This document shows, piece after piece, positions 1,664 to 18,262 of a DNA stretch of 64,000 nt. The notes below the pieces were generated by a model, which saw nothing but the letters and a program-made list of their open reading frames with translations, was not told where the DNA came from and searched no databases. The stretch comes from Rhodothermales bacterium (lineage in GTDB: Bacteria; Bacteroidota; Rhodothermia; Rhodothermales; VXPQ01): contig OZ246975.1 of NCBI GenBank assembly GCA_965232485.1, positions 2,027,246 through 2,091,245 of the forward strand, read 5' to 3'. Position numbers and translations under genes: made by a program. Positions within the stretch are counted from its first letter, which is position 1, and each line of letters begins with the position of its first letter.

Positions 1664-1802
1664 AATTCCCGAATGTCGGGTTACGGGCTCACGCGATGGA
1701 GTAAAGACCGAGACCTTGATCCCGTGACGCACTGCCTGGCAAGCAAACTATCTGACAGGATTCAACGTAGCGCCCACCCGTCCGGACTAGGGCGTGTTAA
1801 CA

Positions 1803-2560
1803 CTAAAGCAATGCGTCGACGATGAGCACGAAGACGACGAAGCCGAGGAATACAACGTCGAGTTTTTCGAAGCGCGAGAAGATGCGCCTAAACCCCTTCA
1901 GACGCCGGAACAAACGCTCGATTTCGTTGCGCCGCTTGTACATCTCGCGGTCGTACTCCCAAGGGGCAAGGCGGTTTCTCTTCGGCGGAACGACGGGTAC
2001 GAACCCGAGGTCAAGCGCCAACTGGCGCGTACTGTCGTCTTCGTACGCACGATCCATCACCAACGCAGGACTGTTCGATGGCCTCTCCATGCCGCTCAAG
2101 AGCTTGCGGCCTTCGGGCGCGTCGTGCGCCTGGCCGGGAGAGAGCGAGAACGAGAGGGCCGTTCGAGCATCCGCGGCAACCATATGAATCTTGGCGCTCC
2201 AGCCGCCACGAGACTTGCCGATGGCTTGCGGACCGTTTTTTTTTCCGCGCCCGTACCGTCCGGATGGACCTTGACGCTGGTGCTATCCAGCCCCACCGCC
2301 TCGATCTTGATGCGCACGATTTGCTGCAGTTGCAGGTGCTCGAACACGCGGTCCAGAACGCCGTTTTTCGACCAGCGGTTCATTCGCGTGTAGATAGTGT
2401 GCCAATTGCCAAAGCGTTCGGGCAGTCCGCGCCACTTGCAGCCGTGCTCGGCCACGTAAAGGATCGCGTTAAGCACCTGAATATTCGACAGGCTCACGTT
2501 TCCGCGCTGTTTCGGCAGCAGCGGCGCGATCCGTTCAAACTGGGCCTCCGTGAGTTTCAT
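1803..2560 (-). CDS. IS5-family DDE transposase, two overlapping frames joined by a -1 frameshift
   Basis: The upstream frame starts MKLTEAQFERIAPLLPKQRGN (ATG at 2560). The downstream frame contains KIHMVAADARTALSFSLSPGQAHDAPEGRKLL...YKRRNEIERLFRRLKGFRRIFSRFEKLD. Shifting -1 at the A9 run gives the continuous sequence ...GTGAEKKNGPQAIGKSRGGWSAKIHMV... Confidence 0.85.
2236..2244 (-). other. A9 slippery run (A_AAA_AAA), candidate programmed -1 ribosomal frameshift site of the transposase
   Basis: Nine consecutive T on the plus strand, located where the two transposase frames overlap. The zero frame reads GAA AAA AAA ACG. Confidence 0.6.
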
Positions 2561-3085
2561 GTTCTGATGTTCTGAATTTAGCCTTATATTTCCGCGTCCC
2601 GAAATAACGCAACGAAGGACATCATGTTTCCTGTTAGTGTTAACACGCTCTAAAAGCAATAAAGAAGGCTTTCGGCATGGGCGGGGATGAAGACAGGAGC
2701 ATTCGCCCCCTATAAAGCCCCCTACGCGCCCGTAGCCCGGCTTTGAGGCGAACGGCGAATTTGCCCGGCCAACGCCCGGAAACGCCGTCTGCGGGCGTTC
2801 TGGTGCGCTGGACGCGAACCCCTGAAACCATGAAAAGCGACGATCCCGGCCCGAACTGCATCCAGACGGGAACCGGATTCCGAATCAGAACGCCGAATCC
2901 ATTCCCCTGTCCCAGTGCGGCAAGCAGAAAGGCGGCGTTATGCTCTGGCCATCGAGGAGCAAGAAGGGTTTTTGCTCCGTGCGCTGGTTTTGTTACCCTT
3001 GCCGGACGGAATGCCTCATCGAGGAGTACGACGGGATTCCCGAACCCCACAGGAACGCCGCCCGGAAACGCCTTTGCGCAGGGGC

Positions 3086-3114
3086 TTGACATTGTCCAGG
3101 CGATGCCTTATGCT
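3086..3114 (+). promoter_or_regulatory. sigma70-like promoter candidate (TTGACA-17 nt-TATGCT)
   Basis: TTGACA at 3086-3091, a 17-nt spacer, then TATGCT at 3109-3114, about 70 nt upstream of the low-GC ORF starting at 3184. Confidence 0.35.
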
Positions 3115-3183
3115 ATGGATACGCACCCGCCTGCGGCTGTTGCGGCGGGCTTTTATACATCCAAATACATACTGGTTTTTCTT

Positions 3184-3630
3184 ATGCGTAATAAGTTACT
3201 CCTTCTCGTTTTTGTTTTGCTGTCTGGGTTATTTACCCAAGAAGGTAAATCTAAAGAATACACGTCTACAATCGTAGGCCCATGTGATCATATGTCATAT
3301 GTTGCGCCTAATAGTTGGACTAAATCTCCAAGACAAATATGTTTAGAGGAAATAAACGATGTAAATTCTGGATCTAATGACCCTATTTCTATTGCGGGCC
3401 CTACCAGAGGCCCTACTTTTTGTGCAACCCATATACTTCGGTATGGAGGCCCCGAAAAAACGTATGATTGGCGAGGATGCGTAAGCCGAATGAGAGCATA
3501 TTGCCATAGAGAAAACGGTAAACGAATTAAGTTTAGAACATTTATTTATATTCATTTACCGTATCTTACAACCGCCGATCTTGGCGCCTATTTACGGATA
3601 GAAGAAGCACGTTGTGAGTCTTACTACTAA
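3184..3630 (+). CDS. hypothetical secreted Cys-containing protein (low-GC gene)
   Basis: The internal ATG gives MRNKLLLLVFVLLSGLFTQEG, a signal-peptide-like N-terminus. GC is markedly lower than the surroundings. The longer track ORF (2743..) runs through a high-GC region and is probably not translated. Confidence 0.5.
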   Translation: MRNKLLLLVFVLLSGLFTQEGKSKEYTSTIVGPCDHMSYVAPNSWTKSPRQICLEEINDVNSGSNDPISIAGPTRGPTFCATHILRYGGPEKTYDWRGCVSRMRAYCHRENGKRIKFRTFIYIHLPYLTTADLGAYLRIEEARCESYY

Positions 3631-3731
3631 CATCTATTGATATTAAAAATCCTTATGCCTATGCGTATACGCTACTGCAATTAGCTATTTAGCATTGCTT
3701 GTTTATAGGACTCCCTAACTGCGGTGACATT

Positions 3732-4331
3732 ATGAAAACCCAAATCGCTTTTGTTTTAGGTATCATCTGTATCATCCTGGCATCTTGCGATTCGCAAGAT
3801 GATACAGATGATATTCCTCCTCCTGTAACTAAAGAACAGGCTTGGTTATATGAAGCGGATGCTTGGGAAACAGAATCCTTGATGTGGCACCAGATGCATT
3901 TGTCTTTTGACTCCCTTAATGTAATTATTGAGAATGAAGGCGTTGACTATGAATATTGGGATTCTTTAGAATTAATTGTGTCTAATTTAGACGAGGCTAT
4001 TGTATTTGCAAATAACAATTCTACGGCATTCTATGATAGTTCTCAGTATACCTTAAGACGTTCTATAACTACTCGTAAATTTGCGAAAAATGAATGTTAT
4101 GATAAATGGGTTACTCGTCGAGATAGTGCAAATGTTCATAAAAAATCAATTATATTTTATGCTTCTTATTTTGATAATCGTATTTGGATTCCCCAAGTAG
4201 ATTCTATCATAAATAAAGCAAATGTTGCTCAAGTTGCATGGAATATGTCCGCGGAAAAATGGCATGAATTATGGCTATGGGATAAATCACCTACTTTGTA
4301 TCAAATTACTGATAATTGTTTAGTGAATTAA
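3732..4331 (+). CDS. hypothetical lipoprotein (low-GC gene)
   Basis: MKTQIAFVLGIICIILASCDSQDD is a signal peptide with a lipobox-like ILASC. Low GC. No recognisable domain. Confidence 0.55.
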   Translation: MKTQIAFVLGIICIILASCDSQDDTDDIPPPVTKEQAWLYEADAWETESLMWHQMHLSFDSLNVIIENEGVDYEYWDSLELIVSNLDEAIVFANNNSTAFYDSSQYTLRRSITTRKFAKNECYDKWVTRRDSANVHKKSIIFYASYFDNRIWIPQVDSIINKANVAQVAWNMSAEKWHELWLWDKSPTLYQITDNCLVN

Positions 4332-4412
4332 ACAACCTTGTGCTTAAGAATGTTTCTGATGTATGGCTTATGTTTGGGGTGCGCATCGGGCCGGGCTCGG
4401 CAGAACGGCGCG

Positions 4413-4516
4413 AAACAACCCGAAAACTGCGCAACGCATCCGAAAAACTGCAAAAAACTGCGTTTTGCTGTCGAAAACTGTCGAAAAACGCAGAAAACAA
4501 CCCGAAAACTGCGCAA
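4413..4516 (+). repeat. iteron-like repeat cluster
   Basis: The 22-bp direct repeat AAACAACCCGAAAACTGCGCAA occurs at 4413-4434 and 4495-4516. Between them lie five consecutive 10-bp units of the form (C/T)NGAAAA(A)CTG (4441-4490). Confidence 0.5.
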
Positions 4517-4680
4517 AAAAGCAGGAATCTTCACTTTCGGCATAGTCCGGTGCAATGAAGCGCAAGGGCGCGGTATGCCTTCGCGGGGCGGCGCGAAGCC
4601 GCGGGGACGGGCGCATCGAGGCCGCGCCCGTCCCGCATCATGCGCAAAAGCGTTGCATTTCCACCGGTAAACGCATATAC

Positions 4681-4722
4681 CCCAAAAATCAGCCCAAAAT
4701 CCCCCAAAATCAACCCCAAACG
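4681..4722 (+). repeat. phased CCCAAAAT A-tract repeats (about 10-12 bp period)
   Basis: The sequence is cccaaaaatcag cccaaaatcc cccaaaatcaa ccccaaacg. Helically phased A-tracts sit immediately upstream of the Rep-like ORF. Confidence 0.45.
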
Positions 4723-4778
4723 CGCCGTTTCGGGCATAAAACGCGCCGTCGCGGCGGCACAGGCAACGGCGTTCGGGA

Positions 4779-5144
4779 TTGGACGCATTGTGGGCGTACC
4801 GGCTTGACCTTTCCGGCATAGGGACGCGCCGGGCGCAGAAAACGGCGCGGGCTATCTTGCTTGAACTTGTCGGGATGATCAAATGGAACCCGGACGCGGA
4901 CGACTACGGCCAGGCATGGCCAACCGTCGCAAAGATTGCGGCGCGGATAGACCGTAAACCGCGGGGCGTACAGTACATCATGCGGCGGCTTGAAGCGTCC
5001 GGCTACGTCGTTCGGAGCATCCGCAAGCGTTCCGACGGGGGCAACGCATCGAACCTTTACGCGCTGAATCCGGCGGCGCGGGGTGTGGATAACCCCGCAG
5101 TTTGTGCAGCGGGGTTGGAAAGACGGTGTTGCTTGAAACCCTGA
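4779..5144 (+). CDS. winged-helix DNA-binding protein, plasmid/phage replication-initiator-like; its 3' end runs into the repeat junction
   Basis: 121-aa ORF. The segment WPTVAKIAARIDRKPRGVQYIMRRLEASGYVVRSIRKRSDGGNASNLYALN looks like an HTH/wHTH of small Rep-type proteins. The last ~12 codons lie beyond the junction at 5109. Confidence 0.4.
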   Translation: MDALWAYRLDLSGIGTRRAQKTARAILLELVGMIKWNPDADDYGQAWPTVAKIAARIDRKPRGVQYIMRRLEASGYVVRSIRKRSDGGNASNLYALNPAARGVDNPAVCAAGLERRCCLKP

Positions 5145-6163
5145 AGCCCCTTGCACTTGATCGCGGATGGCTGTGGGTCGGGGCCGATCTAAGTGAAACC
5201 GCCAGCCTGCGGGAAGAGCATATGGCCACTCGGCTATGCACCGATCTGTCGCTTGTAACTTCCTCTGTGGCGGCGTCTGTCAGGCAAGTTCAGCCTTTGG
5301 GGTTCGGCGCGAGCACAAAAACGGTGGAGAACCGGCTTGACTACCGGACCCTGACGGATATCTATCGGCAAACGCCAGGGCTTGCGCTCGACAAAATCAA
5401 AACGGTGCTCGAAACAGCGTGGGCAGCGCTGGCCCACACGGAAATACGCGGAATCGTTTTTGCCTACGACGAAGCCCAAAACCTTGCCGACCATGCCGAC
5501 AAGGAGCAATTTCCCCTCTCGCTGCTTCTGGATACATTCCAGTCTATACAAAGGAAAGAACTTCCTCTGATGCTCGTATTGACGGGATTGCCAACGCTCT
5601 TTCCGTCGCTCGTGGAGTCGCGGACTTTTTCCGAACGCATGTTTCGCGTGGTTTTTCTCGACCGTCTTTCGGAAGACGATAGCCGCGAAGCGATTCAGCG
5701 GCCTGTCGCCAATACGAAAGGAACCGTGCAACTGAGTGATAACTCCGTAGACATGATCGTGAAAATGTCCGGCGGTTATCCATACTTCATCCAGTTTATT
5801 TGCAAGGAAGTGTATGATGCGTTTATCCAGCGTATAGACAGGGGCGAAGACGCCTCCGTGCCTACCTCAGAGATCATGCAGAAGCTGGATACGGATTTCT
5901 TTGCCGGGAGATGGAGTCGGGTAACGGACCGGCAGCGGGAACTGATGCTCGTCATCGCGCAACTGGATAGTAGCGACAGCGAATTCACTGTACAGGAGGT
6001 GGTGAAAAAATCCAATGCCGTACTTGACAAGCCATTCAGCAGCAGTCACGTAAATCAGATGCTATCGACGCTGAGCGCCCGTGGCATGGTTTTTAAGAAC
6101 AGGCATGGTCGATACTCCTTCGCGATACCGCTTTTGGCGAGCTATATCCGGCGCCAAATATAA
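5102..6163 (+). pseudogene. 5'-truncated second copy of the AAA ATPase gene
   Basis: Homology to copy 1 begins inside the Walker A codons (copy 1 residue ~52). It has no equivalent N-terminus, RBS or promoter. The C-terminus differs (..RRQI* versus ..RRQMDGTGE*). Confidence 0.7.
5109..6159 (+). repeat. 1051-bp direct repeat, copy 2
   Basis: See copy 1; offset 4515 bp, near-identical. Confidence 0.9.
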
Positions 6164-8389: not shown

Positions 8390-9760
8390 TCAAGTGTTCT
8401 TGGCAGCGAACCGCCTTATTTCGTCTTCGCTGCGGGGATGGCAGGCACGGTGCACGAGCGCGGCGTTTTCGATCGAGGTCGGGCCTCCCTCGCTGTGGGG
8501 TTCGATGTGATGGAACTCCGCCTCGTTCCAAACGACCTCCTTGCCACAAGCTCCGCACTTCCGCTCATCCCGCCAGTAGACAATCTCACGCTCCAAGGAG
8601 CCTAAAACGCGTCGGCCATCCCGGAGCTTCGGCTGCATGTGCTCCTGCATCTTGGTGCAGAAGAAGAGGTGTCGGTCGCGTATGGCATGCGCCACGTCGC
8701 TACTAGTTCTCGCCTTGTAGCCGTATTGTCGCATGTACTCGAAGTCTCCAGGTTTCATTTCGGCTTGCCCAGCACGCTCGCGAGTCCTGGCTTGGGTGAG
8801 GCGTTCCGTGAAACGGTCGAACGCATCAGCAAACGTTGTCTGCCAAGACTCGGGGACGTATTGAGGATCGAGTAGGGTGCCGACCAACAACACCAAATGG
8901 ATCGCCTGATGACCGACCAGCAAAGGTCGCTTCCCGTCGACCAGCAGCTCGGTCACTGTGCCAATGGCGGCAAGGAATTCCTTGGCGAGCGGCGAGTTGT
9001 TGTCGAACTCCATGTGCTTCACATAGTAGGAATCGACGGCTTTCCGGTTGATGTCGCAGAAACGTCCGTCCTCTCGGTAGGTGGCGAACAACATGACCAT
9101 TTGAGCGGCGAGTTGACGTCCCTTCGGCGTATTGGCCCGAACGTTGGCCCGCAGGAGTTTCCTGAAGAAGTCTTGGCCGGGGTATTTGGCCACGTCCTTC
9201 TTGCCTGCCACCTGACAGACGAAGGCACCGAACGCTCCCGGCCACGCATCCCTCTGCTCTTGAGGCGTCAACGGCTTGCCACCCTGCAACCGAATGAAGA
9301 GGTCGCGCACTTCGTTCTCGTCCTCGGTTTCGATGTGGACCACGGACAGCGGCATCTGGAAGAAGCGCGTGCGTGTACGATCATCCAGTTGATGCATGTC
9401 CCTCCCCGCCCACTCGCAAGGCGAATCGATGAGCGACTTCGGAAAACGCCCCGGGTGCTCTCGTGGATCGAGTAGGGGAAAAGCTCCTTCGGAGAACTCG
9501 TAGAGTGCATGGACCCGCTGCTGACCATCGATGATGTACAGCCGGTCGCCGATTTGGAAGCCACTCACCTCGTTCCCCTTCTTGAAGTGCAGGTAGATCA
9601 GCGGGATGTGGTAGCCTCGGAGAATCGAGTCTATGAAGTACTGCTTCTGTAGGCGCGTCCACACGGGTCCGCGCTGGTATTCGGGGTCCACCTCCAACAG
9701 CTTCTTCTTCTGTAGTGTGAGGAGTTCCTTGACGGTCTGTTGCTTTGGGGTCGATTTCAT
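8390..9760 (-). CDS. DUF262 (ParB/GmrS-like NTPase) fused to a C-terminal zinc-finger HNH nuclease
   Basis: 456 aa. The N-terminus has DPEYQRGPVW (QR at 29-30), IIDGQQR (78-82) and FIRLQGGKPLTPQE. The C-terminus has C402-x2-C405, H417-H418, N432, H437 and C440-H441. Confidence 0.85.
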   Translation of the reverse strand: MKSTPKQQTVKELLTLQKKKLLEVDPEYQRGPVWTRLQKQYFIDSILRGYHIPLIYLHFKKGNEVSGFQIGDRLYIIDGQQRVHALYEFSEGAFPLLDPREHPGRFPKSLIDSPCEWAGRDMHQLDDRTRTRFFQMPLSVVHIETEDENEVRDLFIRLQGGKPLTPQEQRDAWPGAFGAFVCQVAGKKDVAKYPGQDFFRKLLRANVRANTPKGRQLAAQMVMLFATYREDGRFCDINRKAVDSYYVKHMEFDNNSPLAKEFLAAIGTVTELLVDGKRPLLVGHQAIHLVLLVGTLLDPQYVPESWQTTFADAFDRFTERLTQARTRERAGQAEMKPGDFEYMRQYGYKARTSSDVAHAIRDRHLFFCTKMQEHMQPKLRDGRRVLGSLEREIVYWRDERKCGACGKEVVWNEAEFHHIEPHSEGGPTSIENAALVHRACHPRSEDEIRRFAAKNT

Positions 9761-9890
9761 TCGAAAAACTCGCTGGAGAACGGGAACGTCCTTCAGGCCT
9801 CAGCAAGAGGCCGGCCGGCTGGAAACCAAGCTATGTGGTCTGGGTTCCCGGCGCGAGACAGGGGGCATTTGGGGCACGGCAATTGACATT

Positions 9891-12800
9891 TTAGGCCGTG
9901 TACTCTTTCAATCTTTGGTACCGGGGATCATTCTGTATCTCCGGCTTCGCCTGCAAAATGTCCTTTAGACACTGGTTTAGTTCGGGATGCGACCATGGCT
10001 GATCGCTAATGACAGCGTACAGCAAACACAGCGTTGCATTCGGGAATCTTGCACAGAAATCGCCCTCCTGCAGCTGGTGGACAACGTAGTGGGAATACGC
10101 AAGCGGCTGGAGCCAACCGTGGATCAAATCCACCGCATCTGGAAATTTCTCTCCAGCGGCTATGCTCATCAATGCAAGTGACTCCGTGATGTCATCAGAA
10201 ACCAATTCGAGCGATTTTGGCCACATCTCTTGCCAAAAAGGCTGGATACGATTGCTCCAGTAGTCCTCGCGTTGCGCACCTGCGCTTTCAAGCGCTTGCG
10301 AGAGAATTCGTGCCGCTTCCTGCAACCCCTCCTCCTGTGGCAGGGCACTGAACGCCTGCCGAAATCCTGTCGCCTCATCTTTGTCCGTGCATTCCAGCGC
10401 CGCGTAGGTCAGAACTGCAACATACTGCCGCTTGAACTCACCCAAGTCGTCGTAGTGGCTCGCGGTTTCAATGAACTGCGGCCTGAAAGCATCCAGCAGG
10501 GGCCGATAAAGGCGTGGAGACCAGAGGAAGCCTTCCCAGACTATTTGGGCTTCTATGGGATTCTTTGTCCATCGGAAAAGGGGCAACAGATACTGCTCGG
10601 TCCAGGATCGGTCAACCCGAAACAGCGTAATCAATCTTGACGCCAACACTGCTCTACCATGACGGAACTGTTCTACCTGCGTATCACACATTTTCGTGAA
10701 GAGAGGCTCAAGGCCGTCAGGCAGGCGGTCATTGTCGTTCGGCTCGCGCCGGAACCAAAGAGACAACAGCGCTTGGGTAACAAGGCCGACCGGATGGTTG
10801 ATTGCTTCAGTGACAGAGCGCTGGATCCGTTCGCCACCCTGAGTTATTGTTAGGCCAGAACCAGATTCGAAGGGTGAATTCAGAATACGCCGGCACAAAT
10901 CAAGCAGGATTTCATCATGTCCCTCGCCGGATTTGGACGTAGCGTATAGCCACCAGGCAACACCGTGTGCAATCTCCTGCAAAATATTATCAGGCATGGT
11001 CGCTACCAGCGGAGCCGCATAGCGCCACGACCGCTGTACCATATCTTCCTCGCTCCACACCTGTAATGCTTCTCGCCAACGGCTTGCCGGCCAGATGCCT
11101 TGTTGAGCCAAGTCGCAAAGAGCAACAAAGCTCAAGGGGAACTGAGTGCGACATGTATCAGGCCAAGTGTCCTCATCGGACCAATGCTTCTTGGGCGGAG
11201 GAGTCCTTAGCCATTGAACCAAGTCGCGCCGGTTGCGAGGTGCAATATTGATCTCCCTGTTGTCTTCGTAGTCTGGATCTCCGGTTCCACTAATCCAGAG
11301 CGGGAATTCTTCGGGCTCGTGAGGAAGCAATTCCCATGAAGTATTGGTCGAAGACAAGGTATCGAAGCGGCTTTGTGCGGCCTTCCCCAAGTCCAGCCCT
11401 GATGCGTTCAGTTTCGCCAGACGCAACCACACTGAGCGTTTCACAATTTTTTCCCAGTGTGCAGGCTCAAGGTCTTCTGGGTACATGTCGCGCGGAGGAC
11501 CATCCAGAATAGCGGCTTCGAGCATATCCTGAGATGAAGACAGGCAGTGACCTTGTAGCGCCAAGAGGCGCATGACTTCGCGTTGTGTTTCTTCGGACCA
11601 CAGCCACCAACATGCATCACACAGTAACCAGTCAGACCATTGAACCGAATCAATGCATCCATCTTGGCTGGCGGCGAAAAAGGCGAGACGCTTGAACGTG
11701 GGATACGGAAGTTCAAACCATTCCTCTGCAATCCGAGTCGCCCTTGCAAGGTCATCTTCCTGAACAACCTGCCAGGCATCGCGCAGAAGTTCGATCAGTA
11801 TCACCCAGTCGCGGGAGCGCCGATTCTGCCAGTGCGGTTCGATTGAGGGCAGGCCCACAAACGAACCGTCGCTGCGGTCAACTGCCCCGCCTAATTCGCG
11901 CAGGAGATCCAAGGCGTCGCGCAACAATTGCTGTAGATCATCCAATAGCACGGGCAAGGCGGCTCGCCAATGTTCATCGGTCCGATCGCCAATAACCGAT
12001 TGAACATGGTCAGCGGCAAGCACAAGTTCCCAGTCGGGAATGTGTCTCGAGTGCTCGGAAGAATCCGGTTTAACAAGTTCATCAGGCCATCGGAACGGCC
12101 TTCTCAAGGCAATCATGGGCGAAAGAAATTCCCGCAACTTCATACGCAGGGATACAGTCAGGCCGTCGCGCTTCAGGTGATCCACCCACCGGGAAAGACT
12201 GATATCGCCTCGAAAAGATTTCACGCGCCCCCTCAACAATAGACGCCAAAGTAGCCGCATCCTTTCGTCAGGAATAGCCTTTGGAGAATTCGCGCGAATC
12301 TTATCCAGTTCGTCGCTTTTGCCTTCGCGGTTCAGTTTGTCAAGGCGATCAAGCTCGTCCTCGATCAACCCCGCCAATTTCTCATGCAGTCGACTTCCAT
12401 TTTCCACCAGCCAGTAGATCAGCTGAGGGTCGTTAAGGTGTCGCGTCAGCCAGTGGGCGACATAACGCATCACGGCATCCCAACCAGTGTCGCGATTACT
12501 CCCGATGAGCGTCATCCATGGAGTGCGCCCGTAGGATGCAGGTCGATTTATGAAGCTGAACCGGAGATCAGAGTCAATGGGCGGTCGGGACGAGATGCCG
12601 AAGCGACTCAAATCGTCATACCGAAAGCGATTCTCGGAAAATACCGTCAACCACTCGATTGGCGGCGCTGGATTGAGCTCCGCGAAACGCTTGGCTGGAA
12701 GTCCTGATTTATCCGAAAGCGCCCAGAGTACGCGCCCTACGAAGTCATCCTGCTGGGTGCTTGCAGAGGGCCGCGCCAACGCATGTTGAACCACAATCTG

Positions 12801-13712
12801 CTCCTTGCCAAAGACTCCATCGCGGTGGGTTTCCCCCCAGAGTTTCAATGTCTGATGCAGCGCGGCATGGCGGTTCTTTCCTGAACGAACTTCGTAGAGA
12901 ATCGGAAAGACTCCCTTGGACTCCCATGCAATGGATTGGGTCATTTTCTCACCAGGATCGTAACCTCCCAAGGCGTAGGCTTGGGGTGTTGCTTCGCCCA
13001 GCATCCGGTCGGCAGCCAACGCATCCATCATGTAGCGCAACACCGGATCGTTGATGCTATACCCGACAAAACACACCACATAGTTGCGAAACAACTCGCT
13101 GACGAAGCGCGCTGCCCATCGCTCGGTCAGGTAAGCCAAGCCAAAATCGCCGCTGGTAACAACGAGCCTGTGCAGTGCGATCTCGTCTTCGTCCGGTTTC
13201 GAGGGCAACAATCCGTGCAAATAGACGAGCCCATCCCAGCGGCTGGTCTTTGGAATGGGGAGTGTCGGTGCGGTATATGGATGGTACGACTGCTTGCTTC
13301 GTCTGGCAGCGTGCTCAAATATCTGATCGAAATTGGTGGTAACGAGTCGTAGATTCCCATCGCGACCCCGGGCCAGATGGAGGAGCGCGGTGTGGGTATC
13401 GGTAGCCCCGCGGCGTCTGAGTTTGGGTTTCAGGACCTCTGCCAATTCCTTTCGAACGGCGATTCGCTGTCCAGGAAATCGACGTTCCAGCAAGTCTAAG
13501 GCTATGTCGAACTGTTCCCGCTCATAGGCTTTGGCTTCAATCTCGGTAGGATTTGTACCCAATCGCCCATAAATCTTGTCCACCAACCCCTTGAAGCCCG
13601 GCAATCCTGCGGGATAGGAAATGCCCGCTCCACAGAAGAACACTGCGCGGTCCTCTTCGTGCGCCTGCAGAAGAGCATCTGGAATGTCCGGGCCGTTGCT
13701 TATGAATTGCAT
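9891..13712 (-). CDS. 1273-aa protein: N-terminal SIR2-like (SIR2_2) NADase domain plus a ~1000-aa Trp-rich helical C-terminal region; DSR1/DSR2-like architecture
   Basis: Motifs: FFCGAGIS (28-32), VTTNFD (Asn127), YLHG (His166), CFVGYSINDP. The remainder has no motif I recognise. GC looks lower than in the core genes. Confidence 0.85.
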   Translation of the reverse strand: MQFISNGPDIPDALLQAHEEDRAVFFCGAGISYPAGLPGFKGLVDKIYGRLGTNPTEIEAKAYEREQFDIALDLLERRFPGQRIAVRKELAEVLKPKLRRRGATDTHTALLHLARGRDGNLRLVTTNFDQIFEHAARRSKQSYHPYTAPTLPIPKTSRWDGLVYLHGLLPSKPDEDEIALHRLVVTSGDFGLAYLTERWAARFVSELFRNYVVCFVGYSINDPVLRYMMDALAADRMLGEATPQAYALGGYDPGEKMTQSIAWESKGVFPILYEVRSGKNRHAALHQTLKLWGETHRDGVFGKEQIVVQHALARPSASTQQDDFVGRVLWALSDKSGLPAKRFAELNPAPPIEWLTVFSENRFRYDDLSRFGISSRPPIDSDLRFSFINRPASYGRTPWMTLIGSNRDTGWDAVMRYVAHWLTRHLNDPQLIYWLVENGSRLHEKLAGLIEDELDRLDKLNREGKSDELDKIRANSPKAIPDERMRLLWRLLLRGRVKSFRGDISLSRWVDHLKRDGLTVSLRMKLREFLSPMIALRRPFRWPDELVKPDSSEHSRHIPDWELVLAADHVQSVIGDRTDEHWRAALPVLLDDLQQLLRDALDLLRELGGAVDRSDGSFVGLPSIEPHWQNRRSRDWVILIELLRDAWQVVQEDDLARATRIAEEWFELPYPTFKRLAFFAASQDGCIDSVQWSDWLLCDACWWLWSEETQREVMRLLALQGHCLSSSQDMLEAAILDGPPRDMYPEDLEPAHWEKIVKRSVWLRLAKLNASGLDLGKAAQSRFDTLSSTNTSWELLPHEPEEFPLWISGTGDPDYEDNREINIAPRNRRDLVQWLRTPPPKKHWSDEDTWPDTCRTQFPLSFVALCDLAQQGIWPASRWREALQVWSEEDMVQRSWRYAAPLVATMPDNILQEIAHGVAWWLYATSKSGEGHDEILLDLCRRILNSPFESGSGLTITQGGERIQRSVTEAINHPVGLVTQALLSLWFRREPNDNDRLPDGLEPLFTKMCDTQVEQFRHGRAVLASRLITLFRVDRSWTEQYLLPLFRWTKNPIEAQIVWEGFLWSPRLYRPLLDAFRPQFIETASHYDDLGEFKRQYVAVLTYAALECTDKDEATGFRQAFSALPQEEGLQEAARILSQALESAGAQREDYWSNRIQPFWQEMWPKSLELVSDDITESLALMSIAAGEKFPDAVDLIHGWLQPLAYSHYVVHQLQEGDFCARFPNATLCLLYAVISDQPWSHPELNQCLKDILQAKPEIQNDPRYQRLKEYTA

Positions 13713-13805
13713 TGAGTGGGTCTACTTCTTCTCACTGGTCGGGCTATATTAAGAAGCGCAGTGTGTCCGTCCTTGTTTGACGGACTGTCAAGGAAATACT
13801 AAACT

Positions 13806-16361
13806 TCACCCCCGAAACAGCATCTCATTCAGCCGCGCTTGCCACTCCTCCTCGTCAACGACCTCAAAGCGCACTACCTTGCTTCGCATTGCAGGAACGA
13901 ATTGGGCCCAATCTGCCTTGCGGGCATGGTCGCTACAGATATCGAAGACGGACCGCTTGTATTCAGTGTCTTCCGACCCCTTCAGGTGAACGCCTTTGGT
14001 TTCGACTACGAAAACCTGGTGAAAGTCATCATCTGCTTCGGACTCGTCGTCCCGCAACGTCACGATGAAATCGGCGTATATCCGACGTGGCCTCCATCCC
14101 TGCACATAGTAATCCTTGCGAGCACGGTTGCGATACCAAAAGAAGAGCCGGGCTTGTTGATCCAGATAGGTCGCCACCTTGTTCTCGAACTGGTTGAGAT
14201 CATCCTCTGTGGTGACATCGAAAAGGTTCCGCTGGTAGGGGCTGCCGTCCTCCCGGTTCGCCTGCTTCGCTTGTGGAACCTCAATTTTTTCGGGAAGGCT
14301 ATTGAAATCGAGATCCTCTGTGACAACCAGAAAGCGCATCTTGCCTGACTCCAGGAGACGGCGAAAGACTTCCCGCGACAAGCGGTCGCGCTCCATCTCA
14401 ATCTGTCGGCGCAGCTCCTCGAGGATAAAAACATGATTGGCCGCCACGCGCTCGAATGGATAACGCTCAAGCAGTACCCTGAAAGTACGGCGAGCCAAAT
14501 CGCACCCTCGCCACGGATTGGGCACCAGATCCAGCAGGTGGCTGGCAGCAAAAAAGTAATCCACGGGGTCGGTATCGCTGCTTGCCCCAGACCCATTCGT
14601 TGTTTCAACCCCGGAAACATCAAACCCCGGAATGCTTGCGTCATCCGTCAGGTTTGCTCGCAACGCCACATCTCCTTGATTGCCCTCGCCCATATTCAGA
14701 TCGCCCAATGGACTAATGTCGATGTCGCCCCAGGGCACCCTTGAGAGGATGTCCGCCTCGTAATGAACCAGACGCCAACCATCCACACCTCGAATCATAA
14801 AGACAGGGAGGACCAGATCGCGCGCTGCTTTCCGGTAATTATCCCGCTGCCGAGTCATCTGTTTCTCCGCTGGCCCGGTCAGACTTTCATTGGAAACTAC
14901 TCTTCCTTCCAGTCCCTGCAAGCCCTCCAGCCCGAATCCTTTCCTAACTTCTCTCAACAACTCGTTTGCACGACGACTGAAACAGAAGACATAGCTCTCG
15001 TCAAGCCAAGCCACCCTGGTTTTCTGTGCATACGGCTGTCGCAAAATACGCCCGACCAACTGCGTGATCCCCGTTCTTGACATTGGGTTGGTGAGGATCG
15101 TCAGAATGTAGGCGAACGAACAATCCCAACCTTCCTGTAGCGCCTGTTTGGTGATGATGAAACGGATCGAACAGTCACGGGACATCAGACCGCCTATGTC
15201 GTCCACCTCCTTGAGATCGTCTTGTACGCTGGTCTTGACCGCAATGTGCTCCGCGCCGATTCCCGGGTGCTGGAGCAGGTACTCGCGCACGTCGTCGGTG
15301 TGAACGTATCCGGGCTTGCGCTGCTCTTTGCCGGTTCTTTCGACCTGGATTACGCAAATGGGCCGGATGTAGCTCCCGGTCTCCGCTTCGTGCCGCTGCG
15401 CTTCCACCTCCAGGTGCTCGCGGTGTTCGATCGACGCAAGCAACGTATTCCGCCAGTCGTTGCTTGCCTTGTTAAGAATGTGCAGGTCCAGCTTGATCAT
15501 CTCTTCGGCGTTAAGCTCCTGGCCCCGGATCTCGACGAGCACATTGGCGCCCTTGGTTGGCGTGGCCGAAAGCTCCACAATCATGCACGGGTTGAAACCT
15601 TCGAGCGTCGCTTTTGCGTTGGCGCTGTACGCCTTGTGTCCCTCGTCAAGGATGATCAGGGGCCGTAGCAGACGCACTGTGTTGCCAAGCGAGGTCTTGA
15701 TGTAGCGGCCCCAGAAGCCTGTCGTTTGCTCGAAGGTATCGAGATTGGGATATTCCTCCAGCATTTTGGCGTGCGCCGGGGAATCGTCGTCCGGAGGAAA
15801 AAACCGGTCGAAGCCCCCGCTGTCGCGAAACATCCGCAGTGTATCCTTCGTCTGCCGGTTAGCCGACGGAAGCATGAGCAAAAGGATACAAAGGTTCTCA
15901 GCGACATCGCGCGGGCCAAAGGCCATGGTTTTCTCAAGGATGAGCGTACGCTGCCCTGACGCCAGATCGATCTGTTGGCGATAAGGGTGGTCGCGATCCT
16001 TGAGCGCCTTGAGCGTCTGATTGTATATCTGCGTTGTAGGCACGATCCACAGAACGAGCCCGCGCTGATTCTGCCGGAAATGTACGTTGACAAGGTCAAT
16101 CACCTTGGTTGCAAGCAATGTCTTGCCGCCGCCAGTCGGAACCTTGAGGCAGAAAGTAGGCAAATAGTCGCCGAGTCCGTTGCGACGAGGAATACATATC
16201 CTCCCGGGTACTGTCTTGCTCCATGCCCGTTGAACCCAGTCGAAACCCCAATCGGGGTTCTGGCTTCGGGCATCCCCGTCCGCTTTCCTCCACTTTGCGA
16301 GATTCTCAAGGAAATCGTGTACTGTTTCCAGCGTTCGCTTTTGGTATTCCTTCAGGATCAT
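13806..16361 (-). CDS. res: Type III restriction endonuclease, Res subunit (SF2 helicase plus C-terminal PD-(D/E)xK)
   Basis: 851 aa. Walker A VPTGGGKTLLA, DEGH box LIILDEGHKAY, and a C-terminal YADFIV...VFVVETKG nuclease-like motif. The start overlaps the mod stop (ATGA). Confidence 0.9.
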   Translation of the reverse strand: MILKEYQKRTLETVHDFLENLAKWRKADGDARSQNPDWGFDWVQRAWSKTVPGRICIPRRNGLGDYLPTFCLKVPTGGGKTLLATKVIDLVNVHFRQNQRGLVLWIVPTTQIYNQTLKALKDRDHPYRQQIDLASGQRTLILEKTMAFGPRDVAENLCILLLMLPSANRQTKDTLRMFRDSGGFDRFFPPDDDSPAHAKMLEEYPNLDTFEQTTGFWGRYIKTSLGNTVRLLRPLIILDEGHKAYSANAKATLEGFNPCMIVELSATPTKGANVLVEIRGQELNAEEMIKLDLHILNKASNDWRNTLLASIEHREHLEVEAQRHEAETGSYIRPICVIQVERTGKEQRKPGYVHTDDVREYLLQHPGIGAEHIAVKTSVQDDLKEVDDIGGLMSRDCSIRFIITKQALQEGWDCSFAYILTILTNPMSRTGITQLVGRILRQPYAQKTRVAWLDESYVFCFSRRANELLREVRKGFGLEGLQGLEGRVVSNESLTGPAEKQMTRQRDNYRKAARDLVLPVFMIRGVDGWRLVHYEADILSRVPWGDIDISPLGDLNMGEGNQGDVALRANLTDDASIPGFDVSGVETTNGSGASSDTDPVDYFFAASHLLDLVPNPWRGCDLARRTFRVLLERYPFERVAANHVFILEELRRQIEMERDRLSREVFRRLLESGKMRFLVVTEDLDFNSLPEKIEVPQAKQANREDGSPYQRNLFDVTTEDDLNQFENKVATYLDQQARLFFWYRNRARKDYYVQGWRPRRIYADFIVTLRDDESEADDDFHQVFVVETKGVHLKGSEDTEYKRSVFDICSDHARKADWAQFVPAMRSKVVRFEVVDEEEWQARLNEMLFRG

Positions 16362-18262
16362 GGTTCCAGCCTCTCGATCGCCTCGTATATCTGAAAGGGC
16401 AACTGCTGGAAATCGATCCGGTATTCGTGAAGAAACTCTGGATCCAGGTACTTGGCGGGTGCAAAGACGAGCCGCTTACGCTTGCTGCTGGGCAGAGTGC
16501 GGGCGACAGGAAGGGTCAGCGCGAGATTCTTGAGCTTTTCGACATTCGGCTCATAGAGAAGAAAAACATCATGCGACGCGGTGCGACCGACAAACCCGGT
16601 GTCACTGTTAGTCTCGGCCGGGTCGAACTCCTGTCCGGTCGCTGTGAAGAAGATGTACGAGGCGAGCTTCTCCCACGACGGGAGGTGGGAGCCGTCGAGG
16701 AGCGACTCCTGGCGCATGGGGCGCCCAAGCTCGAAGTAGCTGAAGGTGCCACCGAGGCCCTCAGTATGTTCGACAACTGCCGTCTCACCAGCGACGACGA
16801 GTTTTCCTTTCTCGAATTGCCTCGATATTTGGTCGTAATCGTCCCTGTACTGCTCCTCAATGGCCTTCACGGACCCTGTCAGTTTGTCGCTTAGCTTCGC
16901 CCATGTGATCTCCTCCCGCATCAACTCTGTCTTCTGGGTACCCGTGAAGGCGTATCCGTTGATGACGCGCCGGACGCGCTCGGCAGTGATCGTGTCCGCA
17001 TAGTCCTCGCACTCGACCAAAATGAAACGCCGGTTGCCACCGTCCTCCCGGTTCTGGGCGAGGACAGCGTGGGCCGTAGTGCCGGAACCAGCGAAAGAAT
17101 CGAGAACGATGGAGTCGGGGTCCGTGGCGATCTGGAGGATGCGGCGAACGAGGCGAGACGGCTTGACGGTGTTGAATACGTCTTCGGATCGCTCGAATTG
17201 GAGCGCGGAGACCAGTTCTTTCTTTGCTTCCTGCGTGTTGCCAACATCGGTGTGAAGCCAAAGTGTCTGCGGGACGACTCCCTTCCTCACATCGGTCAGG
17301 AATCGCTTGAGGCGAGGCATGCTGTTGCCACCCTTTCCCCACCAAACCCGCCCGTCCTTATCCAGTTCAGCGAACTTCTTGGGAGATACGCGAAAGTAGT
17401 TGCCGACCGACGGCTTGAACTTCTTTCCAGCGGGGCTGGTAACCTCGTAGGTGCCTTGACCGTAGAAATTTCGTGCCGTCAAGTCGCTGGAGGACCACGG
17501 CCCCCGTGGATCATCATCAGGATTCTTGTAACGTCCAGTCGCCCGCTCACTACGCGCTATCAAGTTTGGGCGCCATGCTTCAATGCGCCGCGCGTACGCC
17601 ATCACGTAGTCGTGATCTTCCGAGAAGTATTTCGCGGTGTTCTTCGGGGAAAAGACTTTCTGCCATATGGCGGTGGCCAAGAAGTTTTCCTCGCCGAACA
17701 CCTCGTCCATCAGAGAGCGCAGGTGATGCACTTCGTTGTCGTCGATGGACACGAAGATCGCCCCGTCCTCCCGGAGCAGTTCGCGCAGCAGCTTCAGGCG
17801 CGGCGTCATCATGCAGCACCACTTGTCGTGGCGGGTCAAGTCGTCTCGGTCTACCACCTTGCCCAACCAGTTCTTCATCAGCGGCGAAGTCACGTTGTCG
17901 TTGTACGCCCAGCCCTCGTTCCCCGTGTTGTAAGGCGGGTCGATGTACACGCACTTCACCTTGCCGTGATAGGTCGGCAACAGCGACTTGAGCGCGGCCA
18001 GGTTGTCGCCGTGGATGATCAGGTTATCGCGCAGGCTTGCCTTCTCGCTCAGCCCCTTCTCACGCACTGGCAGCAGCTCGTGGAAGGGCACAGCCAAGTG
18101 ATGGTTCTCGACAAAGACCTTGCCCTTGAAATGGAGTCGCGGCAAAGGATCCCTCCTCTGAAATCTATTATTTAACGTGCATCCACTGCTTTGCCCACTA
18201 GCGCTACGGAACGCCTGCCTTAAACTAAGCCCCGTATTGTCGCCGCACAACCCGTTTTCCAT
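16358..18262 (-). CDS. mod: Type III R-M DNA methyltransferase, Mod subunit (beta-class N6A/N4C MTase)
   Basis: 634 aa. VYIDPPYNTG (motif IV) precedes DSFAGSGTTAHAV (motif I). The first ~40 codons are uncertain. Confidence 0.9.
   Translation of the reverse strand: MENGLCGDNTGLSLRQAFRSASGQSSGCTLNNRFQRRDPLPRLHFKGKVFVENHHLAVPFHELLPVREKGLSEKASLRDNLIIHGDNLAALKSLLPTYHGKVKCVYIDPPYNTGNEGWAYNDNVTSPLMKNWLGKVVDRDDLTRHDKWCCMMTPRLKLLRELLREDGAIFVSIDDNEVHHLRSLMDEVFGEENFLATAIWQKVFSPKNTAKYFSEDHDYVMAYARRIEAWRPNLIARSERATGRYKNPDDDPRGPWSSSDLTARNFYGQGTYEVTSPAGKKFKPSVGNYFRVSPKKFAELDKDGRVWWGKGGNSMPRLKRFLTDVRKGVVPQTLWLHTDVGNTQEAKKELVSALQFERSEDVFNTVKPSRLVRRILQIATDPDSIVLDSFAGSGTTAHAVLAQNREDGGNRRFILVECEDYADTITAERVRRVINGYAFTGTQKTELMREEITWAKLSDKLTGSVKAIEEQYRDDYDQISRQFEKGKLVVAGETAVVEHTEGLGGTFSYFELGRPMRQESLLDGSHLPSWEKLASYIFFTATGQEFDPAETNSDTGFVGRTASHDVFLLYEPNVEKLKNLALTLPVARTLPSSKRKRLVFAPAKYLDPEFLHEYRIDFQQLPFQIYEAIERLEP

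Follow-up and report, generated by a model that had tools for sequence, protein, structure and literature searches.

A truncated O-like replication initiator gene in a Rhodothermales chromosome marks a probable relic of a small circular replicon

A stretch of 64,000 nucleotides from a Rhodothermales bacterium (the window) holds, at ~3066-5108, what is probably an inert, decayed and chromosomally embedded relic of a small circular replicon with an O-like Rep protein. A first-pass annotation of this DNA had described a plasmid or satellite replication module in which repeats lie upstream of a small winged-helix ORF. The derivation from such an element was upheld, but the upstream repeats plus the ORF do not form the typical theta-plasmid oriV that had been proposed. 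In every intact relative the iteron array sits inside the rep gene, 3' of the winged-helix codons, and in the window this array is cut after ~25 bp. The annotated feature would then consist of two parts of the relic, a control region (4338-4765) and an orphaned winged-helix segment (4766-5083).

The mechanically called ORF on the plus strand (4779-5144) encodes 121 aa from a TTG start and crosses the repeat junction at 5108/5109. Its core had been likened to winged-helix replication initiators, and both profile and structural evidence agreed. The ORF matched PHROGs families annotated as "replication initiation protein / O-like" (phrog_428, E 1.2e-10; phrog_391, 5.9e-10; phrog_8540, 1.1e-8). 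An AF2 model, made with 48 homologues in the alignment, was a winged helix with a pLDDT of 85.7, and its structural neighbours in the PDB were generic winged helices, staphylococcal RepA N-terminal domains among them. Against the Pfam family HTH_36 (PF13730) the ORF scored 19 bits (E 1.2e-3), which is below the gathering cut-off of 25. Its homology to HTH_36 is transitive, since close relatives with 40-63% identity to the window ORF (P0002, P0004 and P0008-P0010) passed the gathering score with 31-52 bits. No match to Rep_3 or RepA was found in Pfam. An NCBIfam search returned nothing, a PDB sequence search returned MarR-type winged helices alone (E ≥ 0.006), and exact-sequence look-ups with the window ORF and with the ATPase discussed below found no record.

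A word-index protein search with the ORF gave a single match, and the family surfaced in a full HMMER phmmer scan of 1.8 billion representatives, which detected 145 relatives. The best match (P0002) showed 63% identity over aa 5-101 of the ORF. Among the closest relatives (P0001-P0004, P0006, P0007 and P0146) identity was 57-72% at best and was confined to ORF residues 4-104. Intact relatives are 267-405 aa long and carry an N-terminal motif (DPxTGQTEL..FPDGPRDWMRW), a repeat-containing linker and a C-terminal domain related to no named family. Searches with tblastn found no coding trace of the motif, the linker or the C-terminal domain anywhere in the window; residues 117-232 of P0146 matched window positions 4791-5114, and no further rep fragments were detected. 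Homology to the relatives at the DNA level starts at ~4766, where the mechanical TTG start lies, and the window ORF has neither the conserved N-terminal region nor a genuine start codon. Because the additional parts of the relatives are absent from the window and homology sets in at the TTG, the 121-aa ORF is, by sequence comparison, a fragment truncated on both sides and not a small Rep protein. What is left of rep is the winged-helix DNA-binding domain alone of an O-like/HTH_36 initiator (4766-5083, plus strand), as delimited by phmmer, PHROGs, tblastn and the AF2 model. Over 110 codons the winged-helix frame is uninterrupted and the residues conserved in the family are intact, so that a residual DNA-binding product is possible.

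The position of the origin became clear from the intact relatives. In all five of them, 2-4 tandem 33-34-bp iterons lie directly 3' of the codons for the wing (SNLYAL). These in-gene iterons have internal dyad symmetry and an element-specific sequence. A DnaA box is located 5' of the iterons in three of the five; the box TTATCCACA is perfect in L085 (3202) and L086 (3912) and has one mismatch in L083 (1336). On the 3' side of the iterons the relatives have a conserved A-rich block, ATCCAT..AAAGAA..GAACT..A. In the window, a perfect TTATCCACA box is present on the minus strand at 5084-5092. It is the sole perfect box in the 64 kb, its position is as in the relatives, and it is part of the in-gene origin and not of the upstream array. 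The remnant of the first in-gene iteron (AACCCCGCAGTTTGTGCAGCGGGG; 5091-5114, plus strand) has 92% identity to an iteron of the L087 circle (1309-1332, E 7e-5). About half of one unit is left of the iteron array of this lambda-O-like module, compared with 2-4 units in the relatives, the array being stopped ~25 bp in by the 5108|5109 junction. The A-rich tract and the initiator C-terminal domain, both present in the relatives, are absent from the whole window as judged by tblastn. An intact cognate element would be expected to contain 2-4 tandem 33-34-bp units with CCCGCAGTTTGTGCAG, with TGTGGATAA before them and the ATCCAT..AAAGAA..GAACT block after them.

Collinearity with an independent circle extends the relic well beyond rep. 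L087 is a 3,491-bp metagenomic contig with a 55-bp terminal overlap, and therefore corresponds to a circle of ~3,436 bp. Its order is rep (encoding P0146), a small ORF, a promoter (TTGACA-17-TATACT), low-GC cargo, a non-coding region, a MarR-like gene and rep again. The non-coding region, 5' of the MarR-like gene, is rich in repeats, with a tandemly repeated 32-bp unit and arrayed AAAAAC units of 10-11 bp; L001, a rearranged relative, has the same upstream array. Window positions ~3066-5108 are collinear with L087 through promoter, low-GC secreted-protein cargo, repeats and rep. At the left end, a cargo-operon promoter and leader (3066-3183, plus strand) were identified by a promoter scan, with TTGACA at 3086-3091, a 17-nt spacer and TATGCT at 3109-3114. 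The stretch 3066-3129 is 78% identical to L087 1971-2037 (E 7e-8), and the L087 promoter sits at the matching place, just 5' of the low-GC cargo. Cargo gene 1 (3184-3630, plus strand), which lies in low-GC DNA, encodes by translation a 148-aa Cys-rich protein with a signal peptide and has a weak match to the first L087 cargo protein (32% over 44 aa, pairwise E 8e-5). Cargo gene 2 (3699-4331, plus strand; likely start ATG 3732) encodes a lipoprotein-like product with the lipobox ILASC. Neither cargo gene had a Pfam match. The GC content is 36% in 3184-4337 and 35% in the cargo of L087.

Shared motifs continue into the non-coding region. The 19-mer CGCATCGAGGCCGCGCCCG at 4612-4630 is identical to L087 3347-3365 (E 1.8e-5), 4719-4742 has 83% identity to the 32-bp tandem unit of L087, and 4690-4704 and 4473-4489 resemble L087 132-146 and 159-175, respectively. 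These four common motif blocks stand in a different order in the window than in L087. The window is missing the MarR-like gene and the 5' end of rep, which occupy ~750 bp in L087. Promoter, cargo, non-coding motifs, winged helix and the start of the origin are present and collinear with L087, and the MarR-like gene, the N and C termini of rep and most of the origin are absent, which leaves a remnant in the window and not a working replicon of the L087 type.

Several further observations concern the small circles and their cargo. The circles are sharply bipartite, with a replication module of ~61% GC and cargo of ~35-36% GC (L087 1-3491; L001 1300-2420; window 3184-4337), and the products of the low-GC cargo are Cys-rich secreted, lipoprotein-like or beta-barrel-like proteins. 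In its 5' portion, the lipoprotein-like gene of the window contains a 19-bp inverted repeat with 95% complementarity and a 15-nt spacer (3761-3813); its Rfam matches were all at chance level. A high-GC stretch at 2653-3065 contains the repeat CGCCCGGAAACGCC at 2768-2800 and 3054-3072, which resembles L001 1250-1281. This stretch, between the insertion sequence described below and the cargo promoter, may be further decayed element DNA; no coding potential for the rep C terminus was found in it. In L001 itself rep is broken (29-262 and 3381-3869): the part with the N terminus and half the winged helix stops at RRLEAG, after which comes low-GC DNA with a DUF1232 gene, and the rep C terminus lies at the opposite end of the contig. 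Either a rearrangement of the element or a chimeric contig could account for this. When viral contigs were scanned for the DNA patterns of the 19-mer and the iteron, 18 loci came back, none with a Rep relative or any likeness to the element, and these were set aside as chance matches.

The repeat-rich, non-coding putative control region (4338-4765, plus strand; 56% GC) has motif blocks in common with the non-coding regions of L087 and L001. It includes a phased A-tract array (4413-4516, plus strand) enclosed by two exact direct copies of the 22-mer AAACAACCCGAAAACTGCGCAA at 4413-4434 and 4495-4516, 82 bp apart, precisely where the first-pass annotation had placed them. With up to three mismatches allowed, the 22-mer has just these two copies in the 64 kb, where 100 shuffles gave an expectation of 0, and it was not found in 105 loci from other genomes. 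It is thus no generic genome-wide REP element or dispersed repeat. Between the copies lie four direct ~10-bp A-tract units (GAAAAACTGC at 4442, AAAAAACTGC at 4452, GAAAACTGTC at 4473 and GAAAAACGCA at 4483). A fifth unit, GTTTTGCTGTC at 4462, is inverted or degenerate, so that the earlier count of five back-to-back units was slightly generous; TRF resolved the array into two 2-copy arrays. Eight runs of at least four A occur on the plus strand of 4423-4520, between and within the 22-mer copies, with a Fourier power maximum at 10.25-10.5 bp that was matched by none of 500 shuffles. With 7 runs, where the mean is 0.6, the 120-bp bin containing the array has the highest A-tract density in the window; the bin at 4681 ranks second. 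A second A-tract set upstream of the ORF, also noticed in the first pass, was recovered as CCCAAAAT units at 4680-4722 (plus strand; TRF periods 10, 11 and 21), and 3' of it are two AAACGCGCCGT units 21 bp apart (4718-4733 and 4739-4754, plus strand). The conserved 19-mer shared with L087 lies in a GC-rich hairpin with an 11-bp stem and a 9-nt loop (4604-4634, unstranded). Its predicted folding is not better than that of shuffled sequence (z = -1.7), and an Rfam search of 2600-5300 gave no match near threshold.

The array does not have the make-up of a set of iterons, taken as at least three direct 17-22-bp repeats in helical register: the 22-mer has two copies, and the units between them are variable ~10-bp A-tract motifs. 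No AT-rich DUE was found at the upstream array; nearby, low-GC DNA is confined to the coding sequence of the cargo, left of 4338. Three copies of the 8-mer AAACTGCG lie in the upstream array and one, in inverted orientation, lies in the remnant of the in-gene iteron. Of its seven copies in the window, four fall in this 800-bp region. Some binding of Rep at the upstream array is possible because this 8-mer is found in both places. We compared the array with the in-gene iterons, of which it might be a displaced or inverted copy; the similarity is weak, the common core being just 8-10 nt long (AAACTGCG; CTGCAAAAAA at 4448). The upstream A-tract array of L087, the one plasmid-type relative that is intact, has zero matches to L087's own iteron half-site. 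Since the L087 array lacks the half-site and the window array shares the 8-10-nt core alone, the upstream arrays are most likely the curved promoter/operator or control region of the element and not the origin proper. This assignment is based on position and on motif sharing with two plasmid-type relatives (L087 and L001).

On its right side the relic abuts an incomplete copy of a host gene. The segment 594-1644 is duplicated at 5109-6159 (1051 bp, 3 mismatches, 99.7% identity), and the junction 5108|5109 has a 7-bp microhomology, GCGGGGT. The suspicion raised in the first pass that the C terminus of the Rep-like protein had been lost at this repeat junction was correct, judged against the 267-405 aa of the relatives. 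The duplicated segment belongs to an AAA_16 ATPase gene. Copy 1 (440-1663) has a native 3' end followed by the same downstream sequence as in L003 and L002; copy 2 (5109-6159, plus strand), which lies outside the element, is truncated at both ends, and both ends are novel junctions. Campbell-type integration via ATPase homology was rejected on these grounds. Rhodothermales MAGs are syntenic with the flanks, with 85-93% identity across the ATPase and downstream genes, and these MAGs have a single ATPase copy and are without 1744-5108. Judged by this synteny, the flanks of the remnant are chromosomal. Homologues of the ATPase with 54-78% identity were observed in MAGs of many phyla (Planctomycetota, Acidobacteriota, Gemmatimonadota, Proteobacteria and others), a distribution that suggests frequent horizontal transfer of the gene. 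The ATPase had no PADLOC match.

An IS5-family insertion sequence (1788-2652, minus strand) with 19-bp terminal inverted repeats and DUF4096 and DDE_Tnp_1 domains marks the left border of the island or lies close to it; we regard it as context outside the remnant element. Its transposase is split over two overlapping ORFs (DUF4096 and DDE_Tnp_1), probably reflecting programmed frameshifting, and there is a possible TA target duplication around it. A defence island at 8390-18262 adjoins the remnant. It encodes a GmrSD/NsnA-like HNH nuclease (8390-9760), a full-length Dsr1 SIR2 protein (9891-13712; 2012 bits to PADLOC Dsr1) and a type III R-M system (Res 13806-16361, Mod 16358-18262). The site of the remnant is a variable defence island of the Rhodothermales chromosome, the sort of region in which mobile-element debris accumulates.

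By analogy with lambda O and ori-lambda and with iteron plasmids, the lambda-O-like initiator of the intact element would bind, via its winged helix, the 2-4 dyad-symmetric 33-34-bp iterons. These would lie inside the initiator's own gene, directly after the winged-helix codons, with a DnaA box on their 5' side and an A-rich unwinding block on their 3' side. A curved, repeat-rich non-coding region with phased A-tracts would precede the MarR-like gene and rep, and would most likely act as promoter, operator or control region. Three breaks mark the window copy. The MarR-like gene and the first ~115 rep codons have been lost by deletion. An illegitimate junction with the partial host ATPase copy cuts rep within the first iteron, and with that cut the iterons except for half of one, the A-rich block and the Rep C-terminal domain are gone. 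The third break is the insertion sequence at the left edge of the island. After such losses the fragment is most likely inert for replication.

One alternative to an inert relic is that the locus has been exapted for interference, the orphan Rep domain, if expressed, or the binding-site-like arrays and DnaA box titrating or poisoning the initiators of related plasmids or satellites that enter the cell. The outcome would be incompatibility or immunity, comparable to the "inhibition phenotype" of cloned lambda replication fragments and of ectopic ori-lambda copies; PMC3349717 and PMC4488673 provide a lambda precedent for replication interference. The winged-helix frame of 110 open codons with its family-conserved residues would suit this role, as would the setting beside Dsr1, the GmrSD-like gene and the type III R-M system and the AAACTGCG core common to the upstream array and the iteron remnant. 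We nevertheless consider interference unlikely. The ORF has no genuine start codon, its TTG standing exactly at the onset of homology, and the promoter scan found no promoter-like site upstream of it on the plus strand. A frame of this kind would be open by chance in ~4% of cases at this GC content, as we estimate, and from the 99.7% identity between the ATPase copies the event is recent. The ORF also has no PADLOC match, and such fragments do not recur in the related genomes examined. That the Rep domain, flanking arrays and DnaA box have been kept as an "origin decoy" or dominant-negative immunity locus against cognate small plasmids and the 9.6-kb circles described below is, in our judgement, quite improbable.

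A functional mini-replicon origin, with the 22-bp repeats and A-tract units as iterons for the small winged-helix Rep encoded downstream, would account for the two exact 22-mers, the strongly phased A-tracts, the adjoining initiator-type winged helix and the perfect DnaA box nearby. Set against this, the 22-mer has just two copies 82 bp apart, 4338-4765 has no AT-rich DUE at 56% GC, and the Rep is without the N- and C-terminal regions found in every relative. Moreover, the origin array of the family lies 3' of the winged helix and is truncated here, the upstream array of L087 is without its own iteron half-site, and PLSDB holds no plasmid homologue; we regard such an origin as exceedingly unlikely. 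The remaining alternative is a mis-join in metagenome assembly of element DNA and the partial ATPase copy, perhaps involving the whole 1744-6159 mosaic. It draws on the mosaic of GC content, the 1051-bp near-identical repeat, junctions unseen in any relative and the mosaic nature of the related contig L001. The ATPase copies, however, differ at three positions and so are distinct loci, the 7-bp junction microhomology is typical of illegitimate recombination, and the internal order of the element fits an independent circle. An assembly chimera is accordingly very unlikely, and even if real it would affect where the module lies but not what it is.

A decayed chromosomal relic is thus the reading we prefer, and as a mobile-element fossil the window feature is of limited importance in itself. 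The Rep family to which it belongs also occurs on ~9.6-kb metagenomic circles (L083, L084, L085 and L086), which encode a large terminase subunit, a portal, a head-maturation protease, a Neck1-like connector and a probable capsid protein. Tail genes went undetected in these circles, which may for that reason be satellites that form capsids, or else phages of very small size. Contig L084 is a concatemer of two units (period ~9564 bp), and its two rep copies are unequal (438-1475, 345 aa; 10001-10582, 193 aa). The gap probably stems from a difference in poly-G run length within the iterons, from which the truncated appearance of P0003 would also follow. The same initiator family therefore serves both 3.4-kb circles, with a 61%-GC replication module and 35%-GC secreted-protein cargo, and the 9.6-kb circles.

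Neither PLSDB nor INPHARED contains a relative of the family. The BLASTN comparison with plasmid databases proposed in the first-pass annotation gave no match of the region in PLSDB, and BLASTN and tblastn searches of PLSDB with region and ORF returned nothing or generic HTH regulators. A tblastn search of INPHARED phages with P0002 found nothing, and a search with the family alignment found one distant locus in metagenome contigs and none in viral contigs. The replicons that use these O-like/HTH_36 initiators, with the origin inside rep, apparently form a family not described before, which occurs in Rhodothermales-type metagenomes. A shuttle vector for a phylum in which genetic tools are scarce could be built from an intact member, L087 for example. 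The locus also warns annotators that what looks like "iterons plus a small winged-helix ORF" may turn out to be a truncated relic; the true origin in the O-like/HTH_36 family should be looked for 3' of the winged helix.

Phased A-tracts and curved DNA are common in the origins and control regions of iteron theta plasmids (review PMC4980987). The family resembles these plasmids (pSC101, P1, F, R6K and RK2, with Rep_3/RepA initiators) in its direct Rep sites, DnaA box and A/T-rich region, and the DnaA box of an oriV is present in the window as the perfect TTATCCACA at 5084-5092 on the minus strand. In contrast to them, the ORF has a single HTH_36-type winged helix without a match to the Rep_3/RepA WH1-WH2 arrangement and, being truncated at both ends, does not amount to a complete Rep. 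The origin of the family sits inside the gene, the upstream array of the window consists of two identical 22-mers with no DUE, and there is no similarity to any PLSDB plasmid.

A second comparison is with lambda O. The winged helix of the window ORF falls in PHROG "replication initiation O-like" families, and in the intact relatives the origin is located mid-gene, has dyad iterons followed by an A/T-rich tract, and encodes the repetitive linker, as in the layout of ori-lambda (PMC7466680). The relatives have 2-4 element-specific iterons of 33-34 bp per origin, whereas lambda has four 19-bp units; they have a DnaA box 5' of the iterons, no P-like helicase-loader gene 3' of rep and a C-terminal domain not related to any named family. 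They are carried on 3.4-kb and 9.6-kb circles (the latter with no tail gene detected) and not on lambdoid phages, and the copy in the window is a truncated relic.

A third comparison is with the RepA_N initiators of the Gram-positive plasmids pSK41 and pTZ2162, whose winged-helix N-terminal domains are among the top structural matches of the AF2 model (5kbj, 4pql and 4pt7; TM ~0.55). None of the Foldseek E values is better than 2.8e-3, which is weak, and generic winged-helix regulators do equally well; there is no Pfam RepA_N match and the host phylum differs. In RepA_N plasmids the iterons lie centrally in the rep coding sequence, between the N- and C-terminal domains. The replicon family represented by the relic appears to be a new member of the known class of initiators that carry the origin within their own gene.
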